From positions 1-55,570 of the forward strand of contig CACGVI010000004.1 in NCBI GenBank assembly GCA_902576605.1: 55,570 nt of DNA, in the 5' to 3' direction. Position 1 is the first letter of the stretch. Each line of letters begins with the position of its first letter. The DNA comes from an uncultured Candidatus Actinomarina sp. (GTDB lineage Bacteria > Actinomycetota > Acidimicrobiia > Actinomarinales > Actinomarinaceae). Shown in pieces: positions 6,077-38,056 of the stretch. A program made the translations under genes and the position numbers. The notes beneath the pieces were generated by a model. It searched no databases and was not told the origin of the DNA. It saw only the letters and a list, made by a program, of their open reading frames with translations.

Positions 6077-7318
6077 TTACGAGTTTTCCCTATATATCAA
6101 TCTAGTTCCTCGCTTGTTTAAGAAAAAAGCAAATATCCACTCAATTGCAACAACAAATTTAGATTTATATCCAATAAGATAAACCAAGTGGATAAGACTC
6201 CAAAATAACCATGCTACAAAACCAGATATCTCGTATTTTCCAACTACACCTATTGCCTTAAAGCCACCAATAGTTGCCATTATGCCTTTGTCCATGTATT
6301 TAAATGGTTTCCGCTTATATTTAGGAACATCTTTTATGACATTTGATGCAACATATCTTCCCTGTTGTATAGCGACAGGAGCAATACCTGGAAGTGGATT
6401 ACCCTTTGAGTTTTTAATGATTGCTGCATCACCGATGACAAAAATATTGTCATTATCTTTAATTGAACAATCTTGATTAATAACCGCCCTTCCCTCTGAG
6501 TCTGTTTCAGTATCCAGTTTTTCTATAAGGGAACTTGCCTTATTACCAGCTGCCCAAATTATATTATCTGATATTATTTCTCCCCTATTAGTGGTGACTA
6601 TCATCTCTTTAATATTTTCAACTTTTTCATCAGTTTTAACAGTCACACCAAGTTTTTCTAAGTAAACACGAGCTTTAAATGAAAGTTTTGAGCTAAATGC
6701 AGGAAGAATCCTACTTCCAGCTTCAATTAAGTAAACTCTGGAGTCTTTACTATTAAAGTTTCTAAATTCCTTATTTATATTTTTAAATGCAATTTCAGCT
6801 ATAGAGCCTGCTAGTTCAACACCTGTTGGACCACCACCAATTACTACAAAATTTAAGTATCTTTGCCTTATACCTTTATCAATTTCATTTTCAGCTTTTT
6901 CGAAAGCTTTAAGAATTTTGTCCCTAATGTCTAATGCATCATTAATGTTTTTAAGACCATTTGAGTATGCTCCCCATTCATCATTACCAAAATATGAATA
7001 GCTTGCTCCAGTACTAATTATTAATTTATCATAATCTATCTCATCACCATTTTTTAAGATTACTTTCTTACTGTCTCTTCTTATATCTACTACTTCGCCT
7101 AATTTTATCGTTACGTTTTTATCATCTTTAAATAAATTTCTTATTGGAACTGTTATATCAGCTGGTGATAAAACCGCAGTGGCAACTTGATATAAAAGAG
7201 GTTGAAATAAATGATGATTAGTTTTATCAATTAAAGTGAATTTGTTATTACTTTTGCGCGCTTTTTTTAAAAAACTTAGCCCACCAAAACCACCGCCGAT
7301 AATAACAATATGCTCCAT
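6077..7318 (-). CDS. ndh: Type II NADH dehydrogenase
   Basis: Two Rossmann motifs (IGGGFGG, IGGGPTGVELAG), HLFQPLLYQVATA, FVIGD, C-terminal WLFWSLIHL. Confidence 0.92.
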   Translation of the reverse strand: MEHIVIIGGGFGGLSFLKKARKSNNKFTLIDKTNHHLFQPLLYQVATAVLSPADITVPIRNLFKDDKNVTIKLGEVVDIRRDSKKVILKNGDEIDYDKLIISTGASYSYFGNDEWGAYSNGLKNINDALDIRDKILKAFEKAENEIDKGIRQRYLNFVVIGGGPTGVELAGSIAEIAFKNINKEFRNFNSKDSRVYLIEAGSRILPAFSSKLSFKARVYLEKLGVTVKTDEKVENIKEMIVTTNRGEIISDNIIWAAGNKASSLIEKLDTETDSEGRAVINQDCSIKDNDNIFVIGDAAIIKNSKGNPLPGIAPVAIQQGRYVASNVIKDVPKYKRKPFKYMDKGIMATIGGFKAIGVVGKYEISGFVAWLFWSLIHLVYLIGYKSKFVVAIEWIFAFFLNKRGTRLIYRENS

Positions 7319-7321
7319 AAG

Positions 7322-7921
7322 TTAATCGAATCTGGTTGGCACTAAAATAGTTACAAAATGCGTATATGAACCCATCTTTACTTCAAATTTAACTTCTTTT
7401 TTAACTTTCTCTAATACCTCACTCATGATTGTGTAAACAAAATAGAAATTTTTGGGCATAATATCTACTGCTTGAGCACGAAAAATGCCTGTTGAACATA
7501 ATTTATAATGATTAGCGTCTCTTTCAAGTCTGAAGTGAATTTCACGTAAGCATTTAGCTTCATCCGTATCATCGTGGAACCACCATTGATTGTTCATCAT
7601 CACAACAGCACGTTTAGTATCAGGAAATTTTACTAAAGAATCAACTACATTGTTTATTTTTTGTTCCATTTCAGAAGAGTAATCTCCCTGAGAGCCTCCC
7701 CTGTATTCTGTTTCAAATAATTCTTTTTCTTTTTCTGTTACTTCTAAACCACAATTTTTTTTTGCATAATATCGCAATGAATCAATATCGAAAAGATCTG
7801 TTTCAATAATTGCATTCTCTTCATCAAAATATTCTATTTTTCCAACAAAATCATTTATTGGTGATAAGGTGTTCGAGTGTTCAAACATTTCCTTTGCACT
7901 TTTGTATATAGAGATGCTCAT
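7322..7921 (-). CDS. Divergent thymidylate synthase (ThyA)-fold protein
   Basis: INNVVDSLVKFPDTKRAVV, KCLREIHFR (Cys nucleophile position), FRAQAVDIMPKN and GSYTHFV fall in ThyA motif order, but RSxD and HxY are altered. Confidence 0.7.
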   Translation of the reverse strand: MSISIYKSAKEMFEHSNTLSPINDFVGKIEYFDEENAIIETDLFDIDSLRYYAKKNCGLEVTEKEKELFETEYRGGSQGDYSSEMEQKINNVVDSLVKFPDTKRAVVMMNNQWWFHDDTDEAKCLREIHFRLERDANHYKLCSTGIFRAQAVDIMPKNFYFVYTIMSEVLEKVKKEVKFEVKMGSYTHFVTILVPTRFD

Positions 7922-8067: not shown

Positions 8068-8961
8068 TTATTTACCTGTTAATCTTAAGGCTCTTGTAGC
8101 AATTTCTCTAATATCTGACTCATATTTTTCTATCTTTGGAATGTCCATCGGGTTTATATCATATATTGCTTTAAGCCAAATTAAGGTACCAGTATCTATA
8201 GCAATATCACCAGCATGTCCTTTTTGATCAGTAAATATTGAAGTTCTTTTTGGCCCAATTAAAGTCTTTATGTCTTGTAACTTTCCTTTTTCGAACATTT
8301 TACGCAATTCATAAACTGCCATACCATGATAAAAAGTAAATACCTCTAAGTCGTTGAATTCTTTTGAGAGACTTTTTGCAAATTCTATATATGCTAAATA
8401 CCCCATATCAGTTATATATCTATGATCGTTTACATCTTTATAATTATTTGGAAAGTCGATCCATGGCATAGCAAGACCAAATTTTGTTTCCGTATTCTTA
8501 CTAAGTGCATAATCTATTATTTCTACTATTGCTTGATCACTTTGTCCTCGACTTTCAATCAATTCTTCAGAACAACATATTAAAATAACAACATCTACAT
8601 TTCCATCATCTAAATTTTTTTTAATTTCACTTTTAACAATTGGATTTTCCCACATTGCTTGTGGCACACCATTTTCACCTCCTCGAAATACTATTCGCTG
8701 ACTATGGTCTTCTATACCAGAAAACTCTGCAAGTTTTGTGAGATTTTGAGCAAATGGCATACCAAAGCTATGTCCTGCATATAACACCGTAAGGCCTTCA
8801 ATATCTACTGAATGTTTTACTGTTGTTGAGGTAATTTTCTTAGTAGAAGTTGTTGTTACATTTCTAACTTCGTTTGCTGCAGTATCTATAGCTACAGTTT
8901 CTTCACTAGAGCCACCACATGTAACTACTAAAAGTATTAAGAGTATTGATACTTTTTTCAC
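8068..8961 (-). CDS. Lipoprotein, SGNH hydrolase-like
   Basis: Lipobox VVTC, Thr-rich linker, VLYAGHSFG block-I-like motif, distal DQKGH; GTG start. Confidence 0.65.
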   Translation of the reverse strand: MKKVSILLILLVVTCGGSSEETVAIDTAANEVRNVTTTSTKKITSTTVKHSVDIEGLTVLYAGHSFGMPFAQNLTKLAEFSGIEDHSQRIVFRGGENGVPQAMWENPIVKSEIKKNLDDGNVDVVILICCSEELIESRGQSDQAIVEIIDYALSKNTETKFGLAMPWIDFPNNYKDVNDHRYITDMGYLAYIEFAKSLSKEFNDLEVFTFYHGMAVYELRKMFEKGKLQDIKTLIGPKRTSIFTDQKGHAGDIAIDTGTLIWLKAIYDINPMDIPKIEKYESDIREIATRALRLTGK

Positions 8962-9010: not shown

Positions 9011-10453
9011 CTACCTCTCGTAAGTTCTAGATTGATTTGTAAAATCATTTATTTCTTCTCTTTCAACATTAAAGAATATTTCAAGTTGAAGTAATCGTGT
9101 ATCTATAAGTTCAAGCATTACATAGCCTTCTACAGCGTTACCTAATGCAATACTTAATACATCATTCTCCTCATAAGGCTCTCTAAACCAATCTTTTTCT
9201 GGATTATTTTCTACAAACATTCTGAAGTTAAATAATTCATATATTTGTTTTCCTGAACCTACTTTTACCTCAAGAGGTGTAGGGTCGCCTTGGATGATAA
9301 AAGTATTTTTATAAACTTCAAGAAAACCTATACCAATTTGCCAATAAGTAGGGTCTATATCATTTAATGAAAAAGACAAATGGCCATCCCAATACTTACT
9401 TCTATCAATACCTTCATAAAAATTAGTACCAACCTCAAACCAATTTCCAGATAGGGTTCCATCAACATCGTAATTAATTTTTCCGATTCTTGGCTCAACC
9501 CTTCTCATCATTTTCTTTAATAAATTTCCTCTGATGTCATCTGGAAAATAAAGGAAAGGATCATCAGTATATATTTTCCAAGGCTCTAAGCTTTCATAAG
9601 CTTCTGGGTTAATAAAGTCAAGTGGGTTATTATAGTTATAAACTCCAAAATCTAAACTTTGTTCGCCTACATATCCGATTACTTCTCCTGCTTTCACATA
9701 AGCTCCTGTAAAATCACCGTTTTGATTTCTATTTTCTTTCCATTTTTTTTCTAATTCAGGACTTAATTTTGTTACTAGATCAAAATAACTTCCAAAAGTA
9801 CAAGTATGGACCATATCTAATCTATAGTCAGTCTCTTGTTTTTGTTGTGACTCAACACCTATATCTCTGGTTTCAATATTAAAAATAAAAGCATCTTGTA
9901 TAGCAAAAACTTCGTAAGCCTCTCTTCCGCCCTCACCTTCTAAAGAATAAAAATACATATGGTCAATTGGTGTTATATGGCCTCCAACTATCTGTCCATA
10001 GGGCATTAAAAAATTTATGTCTTCAATATTCATTGGTGAATTGTTAAACATTACTGGACCAGTACCTTCGCACTTTCCTTCCCACATTCCCCGCCATTCT
10101 TCATCTCGACCTTGTTTTTCCATGGCAAAATTATCATCTCCTGTACCATCAAGACAGTCGTAGATAAGTCCCATTTCATTATCATTAGGAGTGTATCCTC
10201 CTAAAGTTGTTTTTACGCCATTTGGCCATTTATCATTGATACATTTTTTAGCTTCCTCAGAAGCCTCTTGTAAAGCTTTAACTATTTCATTGTCTTCTGA
10301 AATTTCTTGAGAATCTTTTTTCTCAATATCTGTTTCTTCAGCAACCACATTAGATGTAGATGTGATTTTTTCTGAAGATTCGTTTACATCTAAGTTAGTG
10401 TTTTCTCCACTACAAGTAATAAAAAGTAGAAGAAATATTAAATATTTTTTCAT
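9011..10453 (-). CDS. Large lipoprotein with degenerate M23/duplicated-hybrid-like domain
   Basis: Lipobox FITC; VKAGEVIGYVG resembles the M23 peptidase core; canonical HxxxD and HxH zinc motifs not evident. Confidence 0.55.
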   Translation of the reverse strand: MKKYLIFLLLFITCSGENTNLDVNESSEKITSTSNVVAEETDIEKKDSQEISEDNEIVKALQEASEEAKKCINDKWPNGVKTTLGGYTPNDNEMGLIYDCLDGTGDDNFAMEKQGRDEEWRGMWEGKCEGTGPVMFNNSPMNIEDINFLMPYGQIVGGHITPIDHMYFYSLEGEGGREAYEVFAIQDAFIFNIETRDIGVESQQKQETDYRLDMVHTCTFGSYFDLVTKLSPELEKKWKENRNQNGDFTGAYVKAGEVIGYVGEQSLDFGVYNYNNPLDFINPEAYESLEPWKIYTDDPFLYFPDDIRGNLLKKMMRRVEPRIGKINYDVDGTLSGNWFEVGTNFYEGIDRSKYWDGHLSFSLNDIDPTYWQIGIGFLEVYKNTFIIQGDPTPLEVKVGSGKQIYELFNFRMFVENNPEKDWFREPYEENDVLSIALGNAVEGYVMLELIDTRLLQLEIFFNVEREEINDFTNQSRTYER

Positions 10454-12887: not shown

Positions 12888-12961
12888 TGGGAGATACAAG
12901 ATTTGAACTTGTGACCCCTTGCGTGTCGAGCAAGTGCTCTGCCGGACTGAGCTAATCTCCC
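12888..12961 (-). tRNA. tRNA-Val(GAC)
   Basis: GGGAGAT/ATCTCCC acceptor stem, anticodon arm CTTGC-TCGACAC-GCAAG, T-loop GTTCAAATC. Confidence 0.97.
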
Positions 12962-14533: not shown

Positions 14534-14607
14534 TGGAGGCGACGACCGGAATCGAACCGGTGTACAAGGTTTTGCAGACCTCTGCGTAGCCACTCCGCCA
14601 CGTCGCC
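14534..14607 (-). tRNA. tRNA-Cys(GCA), CCA encoded
   Basis: GGCGACG/CGTCGCC stem, anticodon loop CTGCAAA, GTTCGATTC, 3' TCCA. Confidence 0.97.
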
Positions 14608-14613
14608 ATGTAG

Positions 14614-14686
14614 AGCGGAAGACGGGATTTGAACCCGCGGCCTCCACCTTGGCAAGGTGGCGCTCTGCCAGCTGAGCTACTTCCGC
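14614..14686 (-). tRNA. tRNA-Gly(GCC)
   Basis: GCGGAAG/CTTCCGC stem, CCACC-TTGCCAA-GGTGG anticodon arm, GTTCAAATC. Confidence 0.97.
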
Positions 14687-36409: not shown

Positions 36410-37348
36410 GTGGAAGCCATACTTAATCCAGCACTTTTAATGTTCCTTTCAGGAATTCTGATTGGCATATCGTTTAAATTAATTCTTCCCAACTCTATCT
36501 CTAAATTCCTAGGATATTACTTACTACTTTCATTAGGACTTAAAGGTGGTTCAAGCCTTCAAGAAAATGGTTTTATAAATGAAGTTACAATCGCTTTAAC
36601 ACTTGGAATTATATTTGCTATTCTAATTCCAATTATTGCTTATTTTTATCTTAAAAATTTACTCAATAACGATGATGCTGCAGCACTTTCTGGAACTTAT
36701 GGATCTGTAAGCGCCGTAACTTTTGTAACAGCTATTTCATATCTTTCAACCACTGGTCAAGAATTTGATAACTATATGTCTGCAGTCTTGGTTGTAATGG
36801 AGTTTCCAGCAATTTTCATGGCACTCTATTTAGTTACACATAACAAGCAAAATAAAAGTAATAATTTGGAAACTATTAAAACAGCTTTTTTAGAAATACC
36901 AAATATTATATTGATTTCATCATTATTGATTGGATATTTTGTAAACAAGACAATTTTATCTAATTTAGATTTCATTATTGTTGAAATATTTGATTACGTT
37001 TTGTACTCATTTTTATTTGTTATGGGAACTAGGGTTGCTAAAAGAATCGGAGAACTTAAAGGTAAAGGGATAAACCTAATTGCCTTTGCTTTATGTACTC
37101 CGCTGATAGGTTCATTTATTGCTTTACTAGCATCTGTAAACTTTAATTTTTCAGTCGGTAACGCAACATTACTTATGGTGCTAACAGCAAGCGCAAGTTA
37201 TATTGCGGTACCAGCAGTTGTAAAAGATGCCATACCAAATGCGAATCCTGCTATCTACCTAGGACTAAGTTTAGGTGTAACTTTTCCATTTAATATAATT
37301 TTTGGTATACCTTTGTATAACGAATTAGCTAAATATTTTATTGGCTAA
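36410..37348 (+). CDS. sbtA: Sodium-dependent bicarbonate transporter family permease
   Basis: YLLLSLGLKGG, YGSVSAVTF, VMEFPAI, ASASYIAVPA, LGVTFPFNIIFGIPLY; GTG start. Confidence 0.9.
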   Translation: MEAILNPALLMFLSGILIGISFKLILPNSISKFLGYYLLLSLGLKGGSSLQENGFINEVTIALTLGIIFAILIPIIAYFYLKNLLNNDDAAALSGTYGSVSAVTFVTAISYLSTTGQEFDNYMSAVLVVMEFPAIFMALYLVTHNKQNKSNNLETIKTAFLEIPNIILISSLLIGYFVNKTILSNLDFIIVEIFDYVLYSFLFVMGTRVAKRIGELKGKGINLIAFALCTPLIGSFIALLASVNFNFSVGNATLLMVLTASASYIAVPAVVKDAIPNANPAIYLGLSLGVTFPFNIIFGIPLYNELAKYFIG

Positions 37349-38056
37349 TTAAAGAAGGAAGCCACCATCAATTGTTACAACTTCACCTGTAATCCATGAT
37401 GCATCGTCACTTGAAAGAAAATAAATCAAACTAGCAATATCTTCAGGTTCTCCGAGTTTTTTAAGAGCATGAAGATCTGCGCTTCCCCCCTCATTCCCTG
37501 CCCACAGCATTTCTGATAACTTAGTTTTTACTACTGCTGGTGCTATACCATTTACCCTTACGTCTGGTGCAAGCTCCATTGCTAATTGTTTTGTCATATA
37601 AATTAATCCAGCTTTTGAAATATTATAAGCACCCATGTAGTGAGAGGGCTTTATACCTCCGACTGAACAAACATTCAAAACTGATTCTTTTAATCCAGCT
37701 TTTACTGCTTCTCTAGTCCACATTAAAGGACCCATCAAATTTACGTCCCATGTTTTTTGTACTGCTGATAGATCGACATCAAGCAAGCTACCCCCAGAAG
37801 GATTTGTACCAGCATTGTTAATTAAAACATCTAAAGACCCTGTTTCATCCACGATTTTTTTGCAAGTTTCAGTTGCAGCTACAAGGTCATCTGCTCTTGC
37901 AACAAAACCCTTTAATTGTGAATTATCAGAAAGTACCGCCGCTAGATTCTCTTCTTTTCTAGATGTGATATAAACGTTCCATCCTTGATCAATGAATTTT
38001 TGAGCTGTGGATAGTCCTATACCTCTTGTTCCACCGGTTACAAGTGCAGTTTTCAT
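37349..38056 (-). CDS. Short-chain dehydrogenase/reductase
   Basis: TGGTRGIG, NNAG, YNISK (YxxxK), RVNGIAP. Confidence 0.95.
   Translation of the reverse strand: MKTALVTGGTRGIGLSTAQKFIDQGWNVYITSRKEENLAAVLSDNSQLKGFVARADDLVAATETCKKIVDETGSLDVLINNAGTNPSGGSLLDVDLSAVQKTWDVNLMGPLMWTREAVKAGLKESVLNVCSVGGIKPSHYMGAYNISKAGLIYMTKQLAMELAPDVRVNGIAPAVVKTKLSEMLWAGNEGGSADLHALKKLGEPEDIASLIYFLSSDDASWITGEVVTIDGGFLL

Follow-up and report, generated by a model that had tools for sequence, protein, structure and literature searches.

A compact thymidylate synthase-like protein, predicted to lack a folate site, from an uncultured marine Actinomarina

Gene and genomic context

The window analyzed here is the whole 55,570-nt stretch of contig CACGVI010000004.1 from an uncultured Candidatus Actinomarina sp. 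It contains a gene running from ATG to TAA for a protein of 199 amino acids (aa) that resembles thymidylate synthase (TS) and is referred to below as the TS-like protein. The gene and its neighbors are:

6077..7318, minus strand: type II NADH dehydrogenase (NDH-2) gene, assigned by Pfam Pyr_redox_2 and NDH2_C, starting 3 nt past the stop of the TS-like gene
7322..7921, minus strand: coding sequence of the compact, predicted TS-fold protein (open reading frame (ORF) list, homologues, dN/dS, AlphaFold2 (AF2), Foldseek and profile matches)
8068..8961, minus strand: upstream lipoprotein-like ORF of 297 aa without family assignment (ORF list and Pfam)
9011..10453, minus strand: second upstream lipoprotein-like ORF (ORF list)

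The TS-like ORF is a real gene, with 142 close homologues and under purifying selection (dN/dS of 0.13 in comparison with the L023 copy, which is 92% identical). Its position downstream of two lipoprotein-like ORFs and its co-orientation with ndh, as described in a first-pass annotation of the sequence, are correct, all of these genes being on the minus strand. NDH-2 and the TS-like gene are probably co-transcribed at this locus, a linkage that is not conserved in relatives. A functional tie to ndh was rejected, and one to the lipoproteins is not supported: NDH-2 is patchily distributed among genomes of the genus, and in G012 it and the TS-like gene are on separate contigs. The neighborhood of AKR, ndh and TS-like gene was found again in one other lineage, with the TS-like gene inverted. 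An Rfam search near the gene returned no riboswitch or other element, and promoter and terminator scans around it gave nothing above shuffled expectation.

Fold and superfamily membership

When the AF2 model of the TS-like protein (pLDDT 86, pTM 0.86) was searched with Foldseek against the PDB and BFVD, the top matches all had the TS fold (probability 1.00, TM up to 0.71), led by AfhB (9iqu, 9iqc; E 6.7e-10, TM 0.70). A broad profile made from 29 diverse family sequences also retrieved TS chains from the PDB, namely AfhB (E 1.4e-12), MilA (E 3e-10) and ThyA (E 3e-4), and hhalign matched the family to RB69 gp48 with 97.5% and to Escherichia coli ThyA with 91.7% probability. Narrower queries found less: the single sequence gave only a chance match to SAICAR_synt in Pfam and nothing with phmmer in the PDB, a profile of close homologues had no match in the PDB, and Pfam PF00303 did not match the protein even at E<=10. 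In NCBIfam, weak matches were obtained to TIGR03283 (E 1.6e-5; 24.6 bits, with the cut-off at 174.6) and to the ThyA model NF002495 (16 bits against a cut-off of 327). The alignment to known TS proteins is confined to residues 86-186.

Structure prediction and profile searches together establish membership of the TS superfamily and confirm the ThyA-like fold that the first-pass annotation had read from the motifs. By the same comparisons, the nearest solved relatives are the phage dCMP 5-hydroxylase AfhB and the CMP hydroxymethylase MilA, with ThyA farther away.

Active-site residues

Conservation was scored over the 29 diverse family members. All of the ThyA motifs listed in the first-pass annotation are present in order, as checked in the translation and, for Cys124, RAQA, PKN and GSYTH, in the codons: P100-D-T-K103-R104-A105; K123-C124-L-R-E-I-H-F130; F147-R148-A149-Q150-A151 followed by P156-K157-N158; and G184-S-Y-T-H188. 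The positions that can be compared with ThyA are:

7679..7702, minus strand: family-specific loop Arg74-Gly-Gly-Ser-Gln-Gly-Asp-Tyr81, at the ThyA Trp80/Trp83 folate segment (conservation, hhalign)
7610..7615, minus strand: Lys103-Arg104, equivalent to ThyA Arg126'-Arg127' (partner-subunit phosphate binding); invariant (alignments)
7550..7552, minus strand: Cys124 codon, equivalent to the ThyA nucleophile Cys146; invariant and aligned with the catalytic Cys of AfhB, MilA, RB69 gp48 and E. coli ThyA
7469..7480, minus strand: Arg148-Ala149-Gln150-Ala151, where ThyA has Arg166-Ser167-Cys168-Asp169; Arg invariant, Gln and Ala151 at least 90% conserved
7448..7456, minus strand: Pro156-Lys157-Asn158, equivalent to ThyA Pro175-Phe176-Asn177; Lys and Asn invariant
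7358..7372, minus strand: Gly184-Ser-Tyr-Thr-His188 (His207 equivalent), then Phe-Val190 at the place of ThyA Leu-Tyr209 (alignments)

The nucleophile is thus kept, as had been claimed. Three residues before it, Glu121 occupies the position of ThyA Leu143, as an acidic residue likewise does in the hydroxymethylases and hydroxylases. Lys103-Arg104 sit in an SKRAV motif that is identical in MilA. The RSxD motif does read RAQA, each residue aligning with its ThyA counterpart (R148 with R166, A149 with S167, Q150 with C168, A151 with D169); the same site is R-S-Q-N in AfhB and RB69 gp48 and R-A-N-D in MilA. Within the loop RGGxQGDY, G79 is invariant and conservation reaches at least 90% at G75, G76, Q78 and Y81. 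AF2 models this loop with low pLDDT, and Tyr81 aligns with the Tyr94 equivalent of RB69 gp48.

Taken together, the equivalents of Cys146, Arg126/127 (as Lys-Arg), Arg166, Asn177, His207 and Tyr94 are kept, and Ser167, Asp169, Tyr209 and the Trp80/Trp83 folate segment are lost, with Leu143 changed to Glu. The protein therefore appears to be without a folate site while keeping the catalytic Cys and the contacts to a uracil nucleotide. This revises part of the first-pass annotation, which had the dUMP and folate signatures both lost: the losses are real and mainly concern folate-related positions, but the dUMP contacts are mostly kept, and the change of Ser167 to Ala and the missing Tyr209 also occur in MilA and/or AfhB and so are not peculiar to the family. 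Similarly, only the Tyr of the H-x-Y described as absent is missing, as the His is retained in H188-F-V190. That the TS-like protein is no ordinary ThyA is supported by the missing PF00303 match and by the loss of Ser167, Asp169, Tyr209 and the folate-binding segment.

The position of Asn177 has been described as the selector between uracil and cytosine, with Asn specifying uracil (PMC13326640); the same authors call D169N diagnostic of 5-hydroxy-dCMP synthases and also list N177D. Asn158 occupies this selector position in the TS-like protein, where AfhB, RB69 gp48 and MilA have Asp, and uracil rather than cytosine is therefore the expected base.

Distribution in Actinomarina, phages and protists

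The TS-like gene is carried by only 6 of 61 Actinomarina genomes. The first-pass annotation had raised the matter of a separate thyA or thyX, and ThyX was found in all five other carriers, in 53 of the 61 genomes of the genus and in each of the 11 high-quality genomes; in the window's own metagenome-assembled genome (MAG), which is 63% complete, neither ThyA nor ThyX was found. Given its restriction to six genomes and the presence of ThyX in all five other carriers, the TS-like protein is not the housekeeping TS but the product of an accessory gene beside ThyX. Its neighbors differ among Actinomarina lineages and include NDH-2, nucleoside hydrolase, MFS and hydrolase genes. In six Actinomarina loci, a nucleoside hydrolase of the IU type is found 3-4 nt upstream; it is the recurrent neighbor in relatives. 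In another lineage the TS-like gene is convergent with a hydrolase/PfkB cluster.

The family comprises about 155 clusters at 50% identity, and its members, which diverge to 27-40% identity, are also found in uncultured phages and in protists, the latter with mitochondrial-type presequences. Homologues are annotated as "hypothetical", as "thymidylate synthase" (one JGI entry) or, wrongly, as "acetolactate synthase small subunit". Six phage contigs share a conserved cassette of a thymidylate-kinase-like gene, a gene for a 290-aa protein and the TS-like gene; one complete phage of 168.5 kb with this cassette encodes no other TS (neither ThyA nor ThyX). No family member was found in 50,697 GenBank phage records of cultured phages. 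In the tree, the Actinomarina clade is sister to a phage clade, which points to a probable exchange of the gene between Actinomarina and such phages.

The 290-aa phage partner is a putative Fe/2OG oxygenase, as an HxD...H...R pattern is invariant in it and 2 of 6 members match Pfam PhyH weakly; a PDB profile search gave no match and AF2 from 4 sequences reached a pLDDT of 39. It is absent from all 61 Actinomarina genomes (0/61), and the 297-aa lipoprotein at 8068-8961 was rejected as its counterpart, having no similarity to it. A faint "Mom" label on the phage contigs was likewise discarded as a sign of Mom-type modification, since it falls on a gene that PHROGs assigns to a major head protein. 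P0184, a single metagenome sequence, joins two TS-like domains to a 2OG oxygenase that resembles thymine-7-hydroxylase. In the PDB, this oxygenase matches thymine dioxygenase best (E 7.4e-24, ahead of the next match by only about 10 bits), and an aldehyde dehydrogenase gene lies directly upstream of this fusion.

Proposed function and alternative explanations

Our best guess is that the TS-like protein carries out a reaction at C5 of a uracil mononucleotide that does not depend on folate, a proposal made because the folate elements are gone and Glu stands at the Leu143 position as in the water-using hydroxymethylases. The first-pass annotation had suggested a neofunctionalized pyrimidine-modifying or folate-independent enzyme; the nearest characterized relatives (AfhB, MilA and T4 gp42) are indeed non-methylating, C5-modifying enzymes, one of them folate-independent, whereas "neofunctionalized" itself is inferential. 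The protein would be a compact homodimer-type enzyme binding a uracil 5'-mononucleotide, most likely dUMP or C5-substituted dUMP. Arg148 and the partner-subunit Lys103/Arg104 would grip the phosphate, Asn158 would read the base, and Cys124 would add to C6 and so activate C5, where a one-carbon substituent would be made or broken independently of folate. In the cell, the likely direction would be removal, converting 5-hydroxymethyl-, 5-formyl- or 5-carboxy-dUMP to dUMP, a reaction that would supply the resident ThyX with dUMP as part of pyrimidine salvage or sanitation.

As an overall explanation, an enzyme that makes or breaks a C5 one-carbon substituent without folate, likely by removal to dUMP, is put forward tentatively, as a possible rather than a probable account. 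A role at the nucleotide level is suggested by the thymidylate-kinase-like gene in the same phage cassette, and a connection with thymine methyl oxidation by the P0184 fusion, the aldehyde dehydrogenase upstream of it, and the HxD...H...R pattern and weak PhyH match of the partner. The IU-type nucleoside hydrolase beside the gene in six Actinomarina loci and the hydrolase/PfkB cluster in another lineage offer a salvage setting. The phage cassette, with its dNMP kinase, putative oxygenase and TS-like protein, may rewire the thymidine/uridine nucleotide pool. The most specific form of this idea is speculative and, in our estimation, unlikely to be right in full: the family would be a folate-independent TS-fold lyase that, after addition of Cys to C6, cleaves the C5-carbon bond of oxidized thymidylate, and together with the Fe/2OG oxygenase it would carry out a nucleotide-level "thymidylate demethylation", running opposite to thymidylate synthase. 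In phages, the lyase and the phage's own dNMP kinase would reshape the dT/dU pool, and surface-ocean Actinomarina and protist organelles, using the lyase alone, would salvage or sanitize oxidized thymine nucleotides. It counts against removal that Actinomarina has no evident source of an oxidized substrate, the phage partner being absent and a PF03171 oxygenase not being found in the window's own MAG. A TS-fold enzyme that cleaves a C5-C bond through Cys has, to our knowledge, no precedent beyond a side reaction of DNA C5-methyltransferases, and none among TS homologues.

A flavin hydroxylase as the closest solved relative also speaks against removal of a one-carbon substituent and favors a flavin- and O2-dependent 5-hydroxylase like AfhB or RB69 gp48. 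Made uracil-specific, such an enzyme would convert dUMP to 5-hydroxy-dUMP, the phage kinase would channel the product into DNA, and the copy in cells would be a moonlighting enzyme or a remnant of phage origin. AfhB tops both the structural and the profile matches and shares a similar compact size, R-x-Q, G-x-Y-T-H and the Glu at position -3; Asn158 for Asp would switch the substrate to uracil, and the kinase cassette parallels RB69, in which thymidylate kinase lies three genes from gp48. Against this, the diagnostic D169N is a conserved Ala here, N177D is missing as well, and the N-terminal half, the expected seat of the cofactor, cannot be aligned to AfhB. A standalone maker of a mutagenic nucleotide is also hard to rationalize in a free-living Actinomarina and in protists with presequences, and we know of no phage that uses 5-hydroxy-dU as a base. 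We consider hydroxylation somewhat improbable for these reasons.

A genuine but very divergent TS, converting dUMP to dTMP with unusual folate binding or another C1 carrier in the manner of the short archaeal TS and serving as a second TS beside ThyX, would fit the weak NCBIfam matches, the retained Asn177, Cys146, Arg166 and His207 equivalents, the JGI annotation, the thymidylate kinase of the cassette and the complete phage that lacks ThyA and ThyX. This is nonetheless quite unlikely: scores are far under the curated cut-offs, PF00303 does not match, the protein lacks Asp169, Ser167, Tyr209 and Trp80/83, its Glu at L143 is the signature of non-methylating homologues, the gene is patchy in the genus and accompanied by ThyX in all five other carriers, and fusion to an oxygenase of the thymine-oxidizing type would be counterproductive for a TS. 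Least probable, and very unlikely, is reuse of the scaffold by a non-catalytic or differently catalytic nucleotide binder, such as a protein that senses dUMP/dTMP, a regulator, or an enzyme on a non-nucleotide substrate. Known TS enzymes have nothing that matches the N-terminal half or the RGGxQGDY loop, and the genomic neighbors vary, but the catalytic constellation (Cys, the Tyr94-like Tyr81, the phosphate Arg/Lys and Asn177) is conserved down to 27-40% identity, and the tight phage linkage to a dNMP kinase points to an enzyme acting on nucleotides.

The TS superfamily was long held to be strictly folate-dependent. Flavin-dependent dCMP hydroxylases, reportedly described in 2025-2026, indicate that the TS scaffold can switch its cofactor. 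The TS-like family is a second, separate branch, predicted to lack a folate site and carrying a different signature (Asn177, Ala169). Its hosts are of three kinds: a streamlined actinobacterium abundant in the sea, large phages that are uncultured, and protists. From its reaction one could learn of a new chemistry of nucleotide modification or de-modification, a new phage DNA base, or a new step of pyrimidine salvage or sanitation in the surface ocean, and solving its function would also improve the annotation of its homologues.

Comparison with known systems

The best structural and profile match is the group of flavin-dependent 5-hydroxy-dCMP synthases AfhB (phage HY126, 9iqu/9iqc), RB69 gp48 and DLP3 gp80. 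The TS-like protein shares with AfhB and RB69 gp48 a compact predicted TS fold of similar size without a classical folate site, the catalytic Cys, Arg166, Gln at 168, Glu at L143, G-x-Y-T-H and the absence of Tyr209, and its phage cassette shares with RB69 the association with a thymidylate kinase gene. Of the features of this group, L143E and the catalytic Cys are therefore present, whereas D169N and N177D are not, the residues being Ala151 and Asn158. The TS-like protein further differs from AfhB in having Ala for Ser167 and in its N-terminal 85 residues, which include the RGGxQGDY loop and are not alignable, and its gene, unlike those of the AfhB group, stands alone in a free-living bacterium and in protists.

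The hydroxymethylases MilA (5b6d/5jnh) and T4 gp42 (dCMP hydroxymethylase, 1b5d) share the TS fold (Foldseek E of about 1e-6) and an acidic residue at the L143 position, here Glu121, and MilA also has SKRAV, Ala for Ser167 and no Tyr209. Both enzymes keep Asp169 and the folate site, have Asp at N177 (cytosine) and measure 246-325 aa, whereas members of the TS-like family have about 200 aa, Asn177 and no Asp169, and the folate segment is replaced. Of the two hallmarks of pyrimidine nucleotide hydroxymethylases (T4 gp42, MilA and the dUMP hydroxymethylases), a folate site that includes Asp169 and an acidic residue at L143, the TS-like protein thus has just the second. ThyA (EC 2.1.1.45) has in common the fold and Cys146, Arg166, Arg126/127 (Lys/Arg), Asn177 and His207; the TS-like protein differs from it in lacking Ser167, Asp169, Tyr209 and Trp80/Trp83, in having Glu for Leu143 and in residing together with ThyX. 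The short archaeal TS family TIGR03283 (about 200 aa) is alike in length but matches only weakly.

By a purely functional analogy, the fusion P0184, with its thymine-dioxygenase-like oxygenase, may recall fungal thymidine salvage by thymine-7-hydroxylase and iso-orotate decarboxylase, and nucleoside hydrolases, which catalyze a step of that pathway, are also recurrent neighbors of the TS-like gene in Actinomarina. Fungal thymidine salvage acts on free bases, and its decarboxylase has an amidohydrolase fold; unlike that decarboxylase, the TS-like protein has the residues for binding a nucleotide phosphate and a predicted TS fold.

Gene reality and fold

In Candidatus Actinomarina, a marine actinobacterium whose streamlined genome measures ~1 Mb, the thymidylate synthase (TS)-like ORF is a real gene. 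It has 142 homologues of ~199–203 aa in marine metagenomes, and its dN/dS is 0.13 (dS 0.31, unsaturated) relative to a copy with 92% identity in a single-cell genome of Candidatus Actinomarina. A scan of 185,579 species genomes recovered six related loci, all in Actinomarina or Actinomycetota MAGs. The four motif blocks on which the first-pass annotation had based its proposal of a divergent ThyA-fold protein were all found, in the order claimed.

The TS-like ORF (from the ORF list of the window) and its motif codons (read in the window DNA)
7322-7921, minus strand, TS-like ORF, ATG to TAA, 199 aa
7550-7552, minus strand, Cys124 codon
7469-7480, minus strand, Arg148-Ala-Gln-Ala151
7448-7456, minus strand, Pro156-Lys-Asn158
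7358-7372, minus strand, Gly184-Ser-Tyr-Thr-His188

The encoded protein has a TS fold. As a single sequence it matched nothing in Pfam or the PDB, and in NCBIfam it gave weak matches to the short archaeal TS family TIGR03283 (E 1.6e-5, 24.6 bits, where the cut-off is 174.6) and to ThyA (E 0.0065). Foldseek searches of the PDB with a confident AlphaFold2 model (pLDDT 86, pTM 0.86, 17 homologues in the alignment) returned TS-fold proteins exclusively, led by the dCMP hydroxylase AfhB of phage HY126 (9iqu, E 6.7e-10, TM 0.70) and its FAD complex (9iqc), followed by the CMP hydroxymethylase MilA and the T4 dCMP hydroxymethylase (about 1e-6) and then ThyA (about 2e-5); in BFVD, the model retrieved phage TS homologues. 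A broader 29-sequence profile gave the same ranking from sequence alone (AfhB, E 1.4e-12; MilA, 3e-10; ThyA, 3e-4), and hhalign probabilities were 97.5% for RB69 gp48 and 91.7% for E. coli ThyA, so that the fold proposed in the first pass is borne out by profile search and structure prediction alike. Alignment to known TS proteins is confined to residues about 86–186, and the N-terminal half is family-specific.

Active-site residues

Correspondence of E. coli ThyA positions with the TS-like protein
Arg126'/127': Lys103-Arg104; identical SKRAV motif in MilA
Cys146: Cys124
Leu143 (C-3): Glu121; acidic in most family members
Arg166: Arg148
Ser167: Ala149; Ala also in MilA
Cys168: Gln150; Gln in AfhB
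Asp169: Ala151; Asn in AfhB, Asp in MilA
Asn177: Asn158; Asp in AfhB and MilA
His207: His188
Tyr209: Val190; Met in AfhB, Val in MilA
Tyr94: Tyr81, mapped through the aligned Tyr of RB69 gp48

Among members down to 27% identity, Lys103, Arg104, Cys124, Arg148, Lys157, Asn158, Gly79 and Gly184 are invariant, and Gly75, Gly76, Gln78, Tyr81, Gln150, Ala151, Pro156 and Arg197 are at least 90% conserved. An invariant RGGxQGDY loop stands in place of the folate segment with Trp80/Trp83. The first-pass annotation had rightly read the RSxD motif as RAQA; of the H-x-Y motif that it called absent, Tyr209 is lost but His207 is kept (His188-Phe-Val190). Its inference of a neofunctionalised pyrimidine-modifying or folate-independent enzyme was broadly right but overstated the loss of dUMP-binding residues. 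In this superfamily, Asn177 selects uracil and N177D cytosine, methylation is associated with a hydrophobic Leu at position 143 and water-using products with an acidic residue there, and D169N is diagnostic of flavin-dependent 5-hydroxy-dCMP synthases (PMC13326640).

Distribution and neighbourhood in Actinomarina

The TS-like gene is accessory and not the housekeeping TS. It occurs in six of 61 genomes of the genus (G000, the window's own MAG, and G002, G012, G019, G074 and G075), whereas ThyX is encoded by 53 of the 61 and by all 11 high-quality genomes. A search for a separate thyA or thyX found neither in the 757-kb, 63%-complete G000, but ThyX is present in all five other carriers. Canonical ThyA was found in 1/61 genomes, at G021:C34:6426-7214 (locus L009) in a fragmented 140-contig MAG that also encodes ThyX; either contamination or a rare acquisition may account for it.

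Two ORFs precede the gene on the same strand, and their shared starts look like a lipobox; neither has a Pfam family, and a single 531-aa ORF takes their place in a related genome (L023). Rfam matches in the window were confined to three tRNA genes.

Neighbouring features in the window
8068-8961, minus strand, lipoprotein-like ORF, 297 aa, N-terminal 'LL..TCGG/TCSG'
9011-10453, minus strand, lipoprotein-like ORF, 480 aa, same N-terminal motif
12888-12961, minus strand, tRNA gene
14537-14607, minus strand, tRNA gene
14614-14686, minus strand, tRNA gene

The TS-like stop codon lies 3 nt ahead of the start of a type II NADH dehydrogenase gene (NDH-2, ndh), a proximity to which the first pass had wrongly attached relevance: NDH-2 is patchy across the genus and in G012 sits on a different contig. 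The linkage is lineage-specific; the AKR-ndh-TS-like neighbourhood is retained in one further lineage, where the TS-like gene is inverted. The commonest neighbour is an inosine-uridine (IU)-type nucleoside hydrolase, 3–4 nt upstream on the same strand at six loci. A third lineage has the gene in convergent orientation to a hydrolase–PfkB kinase–PRAI–hydrolase cluster, adjoined by an HhH-GPD glycosylase; an MFS transporter and alpha/beta hydrolases are further neighbours. This circumstantial setting suggests nucleoside or nucleotide salvage. Elsewhere G000 (~0.76 Mb) carries four IU nucleoside hydrolase genes (C1:132013-132900; C7:15462-17413, 36964-37881), many for so small a genome, which suggests heavy nucleoside scavenging; two of them are adjacent and divergent.

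Phage cassette and wider family

Six diverged phage-like contigs (L030, L011, L033, L038, L049 and L051) carry the gene in a cassette that runs from a thymidylate-kinase-like gene (227–247 aa), sometimes through a small ORF, to a conserved 287–293-aa protein (53–76% identity between contigs) and the TS-like gene, where stop and start codons often overlap. A nucleotide kinase is its partner in phages. One copy (L030:6246-8597) lies on a 168.5-kb IMG/VR contig, 100% complete by CheckV, in which neither ThyA nor ThyX was found. His138-x-Asp140, His211 and Arg220/226 are invariant in the 290-aa protein; because its matches to PhyH were weak (2/6 members, best E 0.0013), its AlphaFold2 model reached pLDDT 39 and a PDB profile search returned no match, we only infer a putative Fe/2OG oxygenase. 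It was found in none of the 61 Actinomarina genomes searched. Cultured GenBank phages yielded neither the TS-like family nor the cassette, a candidate new nucleotide-modification module. L033 further carries genes for a TnpB/Cas12f-like OrfB_IS605 protein and for a protein with an mCpol domain (L033:4121-5134, L033:1-14).

In a maximum-likelihood tree of 50 sequences, the Actinomarina proteins formed one clade (SH-aLRT 96) nearest to phage P0114, P0116, P0120 and P0122 (SH-aLRT 89–92), and this joint group, supported at 100%, sat on a long branch; phage L038 and P0137 were placed elsewhere. The topology is consistent with an exchange of the gene, in either direction, between Actinomarina and phages that infect it.

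Searching 1.84 billion representatives with a profile expanded the family to 155 clusters, including phage sequences, EukProt proteins of Mantamonas plastica and Paulinella micropora, and other eukaryotic members with N-terminal extensions resembling organellar presequences. Public annotation is inconsistent; JGI labels phage P0120 'acetolactate synthase small subunit', and other members go under 'thymidylate synthase' or 'hypothetical'. One 744-aa protein on a JGI metagenome contig (P0184, L054:1274-3508) joins a tandem pair of TS-like domains, of which the second is degenerate, to a DIOX_N/2OG-FeII_Oxy oxygenase whose best solved relative is thymine dioxygenase (thymine-7-hydroxylase, T7H; 5c3p, E 7.4e-24; runner-up 6e-21); the end of an aldehyde dehydrogenase gene lies 36 nt upstream of the fusion. 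The link to a 2OG oxygenase is firm in this fusion and weak in the cassette.

Possible functions

We tentatively rank first a folate-independent reaction that would install or remove a one-carbon substituent on C5 of dUMP and that in the cell would run towards removal (5hm-, 5f- or 5ca-dUMP to dUMP). This reading is favoured because of the water-accessible site of the Glu143 type together with Asn177, the fusion to a T7H-like oxygenase and the aldehyde dehydrogenase beside it, the salvage-type neighbours, and use of the protein by itself in cells and organelles. A uracil-specific flavin/O2 5-hydroxylase, a somewhat less likely second, would suit AfhB as the closest known relative, but failure at both published signature positions counts against it. 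Less probable again is a true but aberrant TS, for which the thymidylate-kinase neighbour and the lack of another TS in the complete phage speak, and against which stand the lost folate residues, Glu143 and the co-resident ThyX. A non-catalytic or unrelated role comes last and seems improbable.

Whichever reaction applies, the protein is a compact TS fold with its nucleophile and nucleotide-binding constellation intact, a uracil-type selector and no folate site. Its family is an as yet uncharacterised branch within the TS superfamily, and the chemistry is likely new. By the published rules, the family's residues would read as uracil nucleotide, non-methylating, with neither the folate-type Asp169 nor the hydroxylase-type Asn169.
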